Below, one piece after another: positions 452-11,659 of a stretch of DNA of 64,000 bases (positions are counted from its first letter, which is position 1; each line of letters opens with the position of its first letter). Below the pieces are notes generated by a model. That model saw nothing but the letters and a program-made list of their open reading frames with translations, had not been told where the DNA came from and made no database searches. Source of the DNA: a virus (lineage: Duplodnaviria > Caudoviricetes); the IMG/VR virus record IMGVR_UViG_3300028888_000101, positions 1-64,000 of that record; one strand, 5' to 3'. The position numbers and the translations under genes were made by a program.

Positions 452-658
452 ATGATAAGAACCTTTTATGCCATTACTCATAAGAACGAAGAAGGTAAGA
501 CTGTCTATTATGATTACTACAATCAGGTATGGCTTGTGACAATTGATATGGACTGCCTGTTCTCAGAAAAGGATATTGCAGAGAGTATTGCTGAATTACA
601 TTGGAAGAAGGGTTATTATAAAATAACTACATTCGAATTAAAGGAGATAGAGGAATGA
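452..658 (+). CDS. hypothetical protein, paralog of 655..855
   Basis: AGGA RBS; shares GKTxYYD...W...L.SE...A..I....Y.I..FExKEI with the next ORF. Confidence 0.75.
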   Translation: MIRTFYAITHKNEEGKTVYYDYYNQVWLVTIDMDCLFSEKDIAESIAELHWKKGYYKITTFELKEIEE

Positions 659-3449: not shown

Positions 3450-3854
3450 ATGAAAACACAGATTATTTTTACTTGTGCAAGATGCGGCAAGGAACAGGTT
3501 GAGAATCTTAATTGTTTTACTGTTCGTAGATTCAAGTATAGAAACCTTATCGGTAAAGACAGTAGAGGTTATAAACTTGATAAGGAAATCTGTCCAGACT
3601 GTTACCGTTCACTTAAGATATGGTTGGACAATGGTGACGAGCATAAAGAGCTGATTGAAGAAAATAAAACTTTGATAAAGCAGAAAGATTATCTTAATGA
3701 ACAGAGAGTAAATCTTCAGACTCAACTTAGAGAAGCTAAAGAAGAATACGAACATTGTAAGGATTTCTGTCCAAGAAATATGCCTGACTATAATGAGTAT
3801 ATGAAAGGGTATGAGAAGTGGTACGAAAAGAAACATAAGGATGATATACAATGA
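3450..3854 (+). CDS. zinc-ribbon plus coiled-coil protein
   Basis: CARC...CPDC followed by a coiled coil. Confidence 0.7.
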   Translation: MKTQIIFTCARCGKEQVENLNCFTVRRFKYRNLIGKDSRGYKLDKEICPDCYRSLKIWLDNGDEHKELIEENKTLIKQKDYLNEQRVNLQTQLREAKEEYEHCKDFCPRNMPDYNEYMKGYEKWYEKKHKDDIQ

Positions 3855-4111
3855 GTGACGCAATAGATTACGTAGCACTTCAGAAATCAAAAGCAATTCA
3901 AAGCATGATTGCTCAGATAATGGATGAGGCATATCAGAATAATCTCACACCAGGTCAGACTGTAGAACTTGCAATCAAGAAAGGAATGGAATATCAGTAT
4001 AACCTAGACCATATAAACAAGTGGAGCGGTTATCAGTCTTCTGACTCCATAAAACTTGATGAAACCGGATTACCTTATTACGGTATCACTAAGAACATTG
4101 TGAAGGACTAA
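3851..4111 (+). CDS. hypothetical protein
   Basis: ATGA overlap. Confidence 0.7.
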   Translation: MSDAIDYVALQKSKAIQSMIAQIMDEAYQNNLTPGQTVELAIKKGMEYQYNLDHINKWSGYQSSDSIKLDETGLPYYGITKNIVKD

Positions 4112-11213: not shown

Positions 11214-11247
11214 TATTCAATTAGAAATTCTAATATTAAAATAAATT

Positions 11248-11333
11248 GGTTGGTTAGTTTAACTGGCAGAACACCGGAGACGTATCCTGCAAGGTTCCAT
11301 CCGGAGATTCAGGTTCAAGTCCTGAACGAACCT
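11248..11333 (+). tRNA. atypical tRNA-Cys-like element with a 21-nt anticodon loop region
   Basis: Acceptor GGTTGGT/ACGAACC (one mismatch), D stem GTTT/GAAC, anticodon stem CCGGA/TCCGG, T arm TCAGG-TTCAAGT-CCTGA, U73; CTGCAAG lies inside the expanded loop. Confidence 0.7.
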
Positions 11334-11338
11334 ATATT

Positions 11339-11415
11339 GGTTCTAACAGACTCTCGGCAATTAAGCTAAGGAGCACTCAAAGGGGCGATGGGTTTTAGTT
11401 TCGCACTTAGAACCA
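11339..11415 (+). ncRNA. degenerate cloverleaf-like RNA
   Basis: Terminal stem GGTTCTAA/TTAGAACC with three weak internal arms; no T-loop consensus. Confidence 0.4.
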
Positions 11416-11419
11416 TTTT

Positions 11420-11520
11420 GGTGAGGTAGCTCAACGGGAAACCAAGGCAGAGCTTCGGTGATTGAAAGGGATATTTTCATCTGAATACCCTTAGTGGAGG
11501 TTCGAGTCCTCCCCTCACCT
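11420..11520 (+). tRNA. atypical tRNA-like element with expanded D loop and rebuilt central arm
   Basis: Perfect acceptor GGTGAGG/CCTCACC, D stem GCTC/GAGC with a 17-nt loop, T arm GGAGG-TTCGAGT-CCTCC; central AAGGG..CCCTT arm. Confidence 0.7.
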
Positions 11521-11522
11521 AT

Positions 11523-11638
11523 CCTTATTTTATACGTTTCACACAGGGTTACAGTGAGATAAACGTATAAGGCATTTTCTGTTTTGTCTTCCGGTAGGAA
11601 ATATCGGTTAAGTTTGGTAGACGTACCAACTAACAGAA
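11523..11638 (+). ncRNA. two further structured RNA elements
   Basis: TTATACGTTT/AAACGTATAA long hairpin; TTCTGTT/AACAGAA stem enclosing two hairpins. Confidence 0.5.
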
Positions 11639-11659
11639 TCTTTTTTAGGAGTATAAATT

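Follow-up and report, generated by a model that had tools for sequence, protein, structure and literature searches.

The locus described here raises the question of what kind of RNA is encoded by a phage gene which shows the complete cloverleaf of a tRNA but in which the 7-nt anticodon loop is expanded to 21 nt. The gene, referred to here as gene A, lies in a window of 64,000 nucleotides at the start of a metagenomic virus contig (IMG/VR record IMGVR_UViG_3300028888_000101) that is 83.5 kb long and has an estimated completeness of 59%. A preliminary description had read gene A as a tRNA-Cys scaffold with an expanded anticodon loop and had named a tiny intron and a Gly(TCC) identity among the possible explanations.

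The window encodes a tail sheath gene and a portal protein with a distant likeness to T4 gp20, showing 23 to 28% identity with the portals of cultured myophages of bacteria. Its single ordinary tRNA, a tRNA-Gln(UUG) at position 53381 on the minus strand, is of normal size and carries U1-A72, G2-C71, G3-C70, and G73, a set which corresponds to the bacterial pattern. The bacterial-type tRNA-Gln set and the T4-like portal indicate that the host is probably a bacterium, and probably one without protein-based tRNA splicing. Searches for enzymes covered the window's genome (G000) and a complete relative of 142.8 kb (G001). The tRNA-Gln(UUG) of this complete relative (L014, positions 536 to 626, minus strand; G001:C1:20335-20425) has a length of 91 nt because of an 18-nt hairpin of the ATTCAT-ACAT-GAAT type in the variable region.

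Table 1. Features of the gene A locus in the window and anticodon-less or altered tRNA shapes in related records (positions in the latter are those of the record named).
Feature	Position	Strand	Description	Basis
Promoter-like motif ATTCTAATATTA	11227..11238	+	recurrent phage 12-mer, 9 nt upstream of gene A	enrichment and conservation
Gene A	11248..11333	+	tRNA-like, complete cloverleaf, anticodon loop expanded to 21 nt	Rfam RF00005, 46.4 bits
Gene A, acceptor stem	11248-11254 / 11326-11332	+	one G.G mismatch at 5:68	read directly
Gene A, D arm	11257-11272	+	G18 G19 present	
Gene A, extended anticodon arm	11274..11304	+	predicted 5-bp stem, asymmetric internal loop, 3-bp hairpin	minimum-free-energy and centroid folds
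Gene A, anticodon stem	11274-11278 / 11300-11304	+	5 bp, CCGGA / TCCGG	
Gene A, loop	11279-11299	+	21 nt	
Gene A, apical hairpin	11286..11294	+	CCT-GCA-AGG	relatives CCT-GTAA-AGG or CCT-GCAA-AGG, GNRA tetraloops
Gene A, variable region		+	4 nt, AGAT	
Gene A, T arm	11309-11325	+	TCAGG-TTCAAGT-CCTGA	
Gene A, discriminator	11333	+	T	
Module B	11334..11419	+	structured RNA, 86 nt, multi-hairpin, 9-bp closing stem, adjoins gene A at its 3' side	
Gene C	11420..11520	+	tRNA-like, perfect acceptor stem and T arm, enlarged D loop	Rfam tRNA, 36 bits
Module D	11521..11646	+	long hairpin and branched element, T run before the ribosome-binding site of the next gene	
tRNA shape in L017	467-538		no anticodon loop, arm ends AGAA-GTAA-TTCT	
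tRNA shape in L002	4026-4092		no anticodon loop, arm ends CAG-GTGG-CTG	
tRNA shape in L004	17-114	+	long variable arm, A discriminator, UGCA loop on a 9-bp stem as anticodon arm	

The Rfam tRNA score of gene A is far above chance, with 46.4 bits compared to a gathering score of 29 and E values of 1.9e-8 in a local search and 3e-10 per genome. All arms of gene A are placed in the Rfam alignment, and the 21 nt appear as an insertion at the site of the 7-nt anticodon loop. The 7-bp acceptor stem, the D arm with G18 and G19, and the T arm with its T-loop correspond to those of a canonical tRNA, whereas gene A lacks the canonical anticodon loop of 7 nt, with its U33 and its purine at position 37, the loop comprising 21 nt in the window and 22 nt in relatives. 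The tRNA scaffold with an expanded anticodon loop is thus real, and the near-complete cloverleaf, CCGGA/TCCGG stem, 4-nt variable region, TCAGG/CCTGA stem, and U73 named in the preliminary description are each present in the sequence. The tRNA family is the sole Rfam family matched by gene A. The ARAGORN search for tmRNA gave no match, and the combination of a tRNA-like domain with a tag frame which marks a tmRNA was not found. A relationship to YrlA or other bacterial Y RNAs was rejected as well, with no match to a Y RNA model and no Ro protein (TROVE, PF05731) in G000 or the complete G001. Neither ARAGORN with default settings nor an Rfam run of the whole window with fast filters calls gene A, and ARAGORN with intron search reports it as Gly(TCC), placing an insert of 16 nt at 30/31. 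As a practical lesson, such genes escape standard tRNA finders or receive a wrong label (Gly, Phe, or Cys) from them.

The fold predicted for the extended arm contains an internal loop of 7 by 5 nt, with GACGTAT on the 5' side and TTCCA on the 3' side, below the apical hairpin. In the nearest-neighbour model, the register of the 3-bp hairpin shows a pair probability of 0.98 in the relatives and 0.69 in the window, and the 7-nt register, which would display CTGCAAG or CTGTAAA, has a probability of <0.01 in the relatives. According to the model, the tip of the arm is a 3-bp hairpin of the GNRA type and not a 7-nt anticodon loop. An antisense search of the phage genome with the arm returned no target of at least 12 nt, the best match being a single 11-mer at chance level.

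Protein-anchored and pattern searches recovered relatives of gene A from four other viral contigs and several metagenome contigs, giving a set of seven distinct variants including that of the window; an additional contig shows no difference from the window. The variants are 92 to 99% identical, with 95% of stem cells paired, and all seven keep the expansion (21 nt in the window, 22 nt in the six others). Eighteen nonapical loop positions are invariant in all seven variants, and changes in the insert are confined to the tip of the hairpin, the stem of which is kept: the center reads CCT-GTAA-AGG in five of the seven, CCT-GCAA-AGG in one, and CCT-GCA-AGG in the window. The canonical-looking CT-GCA-AG of the preliminary description is therefore present in the window but is not conserved in the relatives. 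The refuting case given there, in which relatives would have a normal loop of 7 nt together with random decay, was not found among the six other variants, which keep the expansion with its invariant flanks, and a pattern scan of the viral collection showed no copy of the same body with a normal loop.

The rate of change can be compared with that of the adjacent gene for a protein of 222 aa. Its four-fold degenerate sites differ by 19 to 27% between the same phages, compared to 6 to 8% for the gene A RNA, which corresponds to an evolution of the RNA three to four times slower than that of neighbouring neutral sites. Because 18 insert positions are invariant while the neighbouring four-fold sites differ to this extent, simple decay of gene A appears unlikely. 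The difference between the insert, with 0 of 18 variable positions, and the body, with 10 of 65 variable columns, is not significant, and recent horizontal spread of the cassette could account for some of the conservation. A covariation check on the seven variants, which are very close to each other, found no pair with a double change. Five of the eight stem changes keep or improve pairing (e.g., G-C to G.U, U.G to C-G, and G.G to G-C). The three disruptive changes comprise two in L001, an A.C (T stem) and a U.C (acceptor stem), and one in L012, a C.U (anticodon stem); the G.G at 5:68 occurs in five of the seven variants.

Gene A shows a narrow distribution. Pattern scans of viral contigs, metagenome contigs, and 185,579 species genomes found it only in a few related metagenomic contigs; it is absent from the species genomes, and all other pattern matches in these scans are chance occurrences in GC-rich coding DNA. 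The RNA cluster and a stretch of 15 kb had no blastn match among 50,697 phage records, the 86 nt of gene A searched alone against cultured phage records gave only matches to the T arm with an E value of ∼0.7, and E. coli genomes gave no match to gene A. More distant phage contigs, with 39 to 66% portal identity, contain only one normal tRNA.

The identity as a tRNA-Cys is not supported. The triplet at the tip is GTA in five of the seven variants, and the GCA of the window sits in the tip of the 3-bp hairpin instead of at positions 34 to 36 of a 7-nt loop. The discriminator at position 73 is T, G, or C, and positions 15:48 are A:U, compared to G:G in E. coli cysT. Over 65 positions, the body of gene A shares 39 with E. 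coli cysT, 38 to 39 with E. coli Gly tRNAs, 43 with the tRNA-Asn of a related phage, and likewise 43 with the window's own tRNA-Gln. None of the variants carries G3.U70, a long variable arm, or a G at position -1, and G18 is changed to A in two of them. Judged by these positions, no aminoacylation identity is retained by gene A.

Gene A is part of an RNA cluster contained in a 446-bp noncoding gap (positions 11214 to 11659) between two plus-strand genes. The GC content of the gap is 45%, compared to ∼33% nearby, and all overlapping open reading frames have at most 40 aa. Module B matches no Rfam family; in an RNAalifold analysis of five sequences, L029 differs at two pairs by compensatory double changes (A-U to G-C and G-C to A-U), which indicates that the cluster encodes selected RNAs. 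Gene C carries ∼33 nt where the normal anticodon arm would be, and its D loop of 17 nt holds a GG-GAAA-CC hairpin. The tip triplet of gene C changes from CAT to CAC in L032, which argues against a conserved anticodon. Homologues of gene C with differing central inserts are found in L017, L029, L002, and L032, the L029 and L002 versions having the acceptor stem and T arm in common but differing in a 44-nt central insert. Module D shows a fold z-score of -2.2 and is kept in L002, L007, L017, L029, and L032.

The cluster has a cassette-like organization, with gene A as the first unit in every relative examined. The order A-B-C-D is found in the window, L029, and L032, the complete relative shows A-B, and L007 shows A-D. 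In L012 and L017, gene A is followed by a further stretch of ∼97 nt and an extra tRNA shape, X, before B, C, and D, and in L002, the units after gene A are a different, long module, then a tRNA shape of 67 nt, and finally D. Across these sister tRNA shapes, the anticodon arm is replaced by arms with tetraloop caps or by inserts of 33 to 44 nt. The stretch which takes the place of module B in L002 (positions 3833 to 4025, plus strand) comprises ∼190 nt, is unrelated to module B, contains repeated GTAAGCTGAGG motifs, and matches no Rfam family. In L003 to L006, the position of the RNA cluster downstream of the 222-aa gene is occupied by small zinc-finger or HNH-like open reading frames, which indicates that this slot is a hotspot of cassette exchange.

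The 12-mer upstream of gene A recurs in the window, with 14 copies at no more than one mismatch compared to 1.9 expected; none of 100 shuffled sequences reached 14. Its sites include 4505, 5572, 11227, 13681, 13778, and, on the minus strand, 33148 and 53395, and copies lie directly upstream of protein genes as well as RNA genes. All relatives keep the motif upstream of gene A, also those in which the upstream gene or the genomic context is different. A scan with the sigma-70 consensus found no promoter on the plus strand, and the motif has no TTGACA-like partner. Its position upstream of genes and RNA genes together with the missing partner suggests that it is probably a phage-specific promoter. 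The motif also lies 13 nt before the tRNA-Gln of the window on the minus strand, so that the gene A locus and the tRNA-Gln locus have the layout of motif, tRNA, and RNA array in common. Behind the tRNA-Gln, positions 53091 to 53303 on the minus strand hold successive hairpin units in which ACAGGGAAACCGAG / ACAGGGCAACCGAG boxes are repeated, and this region appears to be a second phage RNA operon with a tRNA in first position.

Among the explanations to be weighed for gene A, a functional decoding tRNA, e.g., Gly(UCC), from which a short intron of 14 to 16 nt would be removed after transcription, is very improbable. Such a reading can draw on the Gly(TCC) call of the ARAGORN intron search and on the Lak megaphages, in which tRNA genes including Gly(TCC) and Phe(GAA) hold conserved, unexplained inserts (PMC6784885). 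However, the Gly(TCC) alternative of the preliminary description works only if the stem is shifted to include an A.A pair, nucleotide 26 is dropped, and the variable region is cut to 3 nt, and the discriminator varies among the variants. None of the eight possible contiguous excisions that keep the Rfam-aligned 5-bp stem gives U33. In a bulge-helix-bulge motif, two 3-nt bulges flank a 4-bp helix at the exon-intron junctions; the fold of gene A shows a 7-by-5 internal loop and a 3-bp stem in its place. A group I intron needs a catalytic core of some 200 nt or more, compared to an insert of only 14 to 15 nt without any Rfam intron match. The tRNA splicing endonuclease (PF01974), RtcB, RNA ligase, and CCA-adding enzyme are absent from G000 and the complete G001, and the host, judged from the bacterial-type tRNA-Gln and the T4-like portal, is probably a bacterium without protein-based splicing. 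With no excision restoring U33, no bulge-helix-bulge motif, and no splicing enzymes in the phage, the tiny intron proposed earlier is unlikely. Most likely, the extension abolishes decoding, and gene A would be a nondecoding RNA rather than a cysteine tRNA or an intron-bearing tRNA.

Two further explanations accept that gene A does not decode. It might be the relic of a disabled tRNA, the shape of which serves as a processing or punctuation signal or is a neutral pseudogene, with a functionless insert conserved through recent descent. This is considered unlikely, although the anticodon arms are destroyed in diverse ways across the tRNA shapes of the cluster, the stems of L001 and L012 contain mismatches in addition to the frequent G.G at 5:68, and the conservation of the insert is statistically inseparable from that of the body; moreover, a single T4 precursor yields both the tRNAs and the species I and II RNAs (PMC2330249). 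A relic is difficult to reconcile with the slow evolution of the whole RNA compared to neutral sites next door, with insert changes that spare the hairpin stem, with the promoter motif retained in every context, and with the majority of stem changes keeping or improving pairing. Alternatively, gene A could act as a decoy or competitive inhibitor of a host tRNA-directed defence nuclease, the body recruiting the enzyme and the arm being either uncleavable or a Tyr-like (CUGUAAA) or Cys-like (CUGCAAA) loop mimic kept off the translation machinery. Anti-phage tRNases which cut the anticodon arm are widespread and are countered by phage tRNAs (PMC10264068, PMC11555353, PMC13056530, PMC11464382), the clade holds several anticodon-less tRNA shapes, and a nondecoding decoy would leave translation undisturbed. 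The tip of the arm in its alternative register indeed reads CTGTAAA or CTGCAAA, closed by a C-G pair, but it is this 7-nt register to which the nearest-neighbour model assigns the probability of <0.01, and the mimicked identity would flip from Tyr to Cys between near-identical phages. A decoy function of this kind is regarded as improbable. The decoy and the uncharged-tRNA mimic named in the preliminary description would both be compatible with the features of gene A.

The reading favoured here, and held to be rather probable, is that gene A encodes a nondecoding tRNA-shaped small RNA at the head of the cluster, in which a conserved arm is carried on a chassis processed like a tRNA. The cloverleaf, its conservation, the promoter motif, the modular context, and the missing anticodon loop are directly established. 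The parts of a tRNA recognized in processing are kept, and the part used by the ribosome and most synthetases is removed, which leads to the reading of gene A as a nondecoding tRNA chassis. In the proposed mechanism, transcription from the promoter motif of the distantly T4-like myophage would yield a polycistronic RNA with several structured units, of which gene A comes first. The acceptor stem, T arm, and D arm would supply the tRNA elbow, and RNase P, the 3' processing enzymes, and the CCA-adding enzyme of the host may then cut out and stabilize the RNA; the intact acceptor/T-arm stack and the elbow make it a candidate for RNase P and RNase Z cuts at +1 and at the discriminator and for subsequent CCA addition. 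Excision of gene A may also release the neighbouring RNAs. The irregular helical extension in place of the anticodon loop would be the conserved, sequence-specific part of the molecule and presumably serves to bind a partner, either a protein or an RNA. A wider proposal, which is put forward only tentatively, is that the phage clade encodes a natural family of tRNA-chassis RNAs with host-processed bodies and swapped arm cargos, which might interfere in trans with host tRNA-binding factors (e.g., anti-phage tRNases), either as decoys or by inhibition, with gene A as the constant first member.

The nearest published case is that of the "enigmatic introns" in tRNA genes of the Lak megaphages (Devoto et al. 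2019, PMC6784885). In both cases, tRNA shapes of phages from gut- or rumen-type metagenomes are extra long through an insert in the anticodon loop, and the inserts are well conserved between samples, have no known splicing mechanism, and match no Rfam family. The Lak inserts, however, comprise ∼80 to 115 nt at the canonical position 37/38, leave an anticodon loop that can still be typed, and in some cases contain a T-arm-like element (PMC6784885). The insert of gene A, in contrast, has 14 to 15 nt with a small hairpin and leaves no canonical loop after any excision, and it was rejected as a Lak-type insert on account of this noncanonical position and product. Archaeal and eukaryal bulge-helix-bulge introns and bacterial group I tRNA introns are likewise insertions in the anticodon-loop region but differ from gene A, which shows neither the motif nor a catalytic core, gives no canonical spliced product, and belongs to a phage whose host appears to be bacterial.

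The cluster as a whole resembles the T4 tRNA cluster with its species I and II RNAs, in which tRNA-type processing of the precursor frees the tRNA and the species I/II units (PMC2330249). Both are polycistronic and combine tRNA units with other small RNAs, and the phage of gene A is distantly T4-like, as seen from the similarity of the portal. The T4 tRNAs are normal and decoding, in contrast to the tRNA-shaped units of the gene A cluster, which lack anticodon loops. The same arrangement as in gene A is known from the engineered tRNA scaffold (PMC3753655), where the acceptor, T, and D parts of the body are intact and the anticodon arm is swapped for a structured element, leading to tRNA-type processing and stability of the cargo RNA (PMC3753655). 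That scaffold is synthetic, and gene A is a candidate for its natural counterpart in a phage. The phage tRNAs which evade anticodon nucleases are also phage encoded with altered anticodon loops (PMC10264068, PMC11464382, PMC11555353), but these decode and carry point changes in a 7-nt loop, whereas gene A is without a decoding loop.

Phage tRNA genes are now viewed as weapons against tRNA-cutting defences, and all cases known so far involve decoding tRNAs. A phage RNA that is conserved and has the body of a tRNA but no anticodon loop would differ from these cases, and genes of the same operon with other arm replacements strengthen the argument. The significance of gene A is limited by its narrow distribution; it would also offer a second, simpler study case for the unexplained tRNA "introns" of the Lak megaphages. 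If the favoured reading is true, gene A would be an instance in nature of the tRNA fold serving as a chassis for the processing and stability of small functional RNAs or as a decoy neutral to translation.
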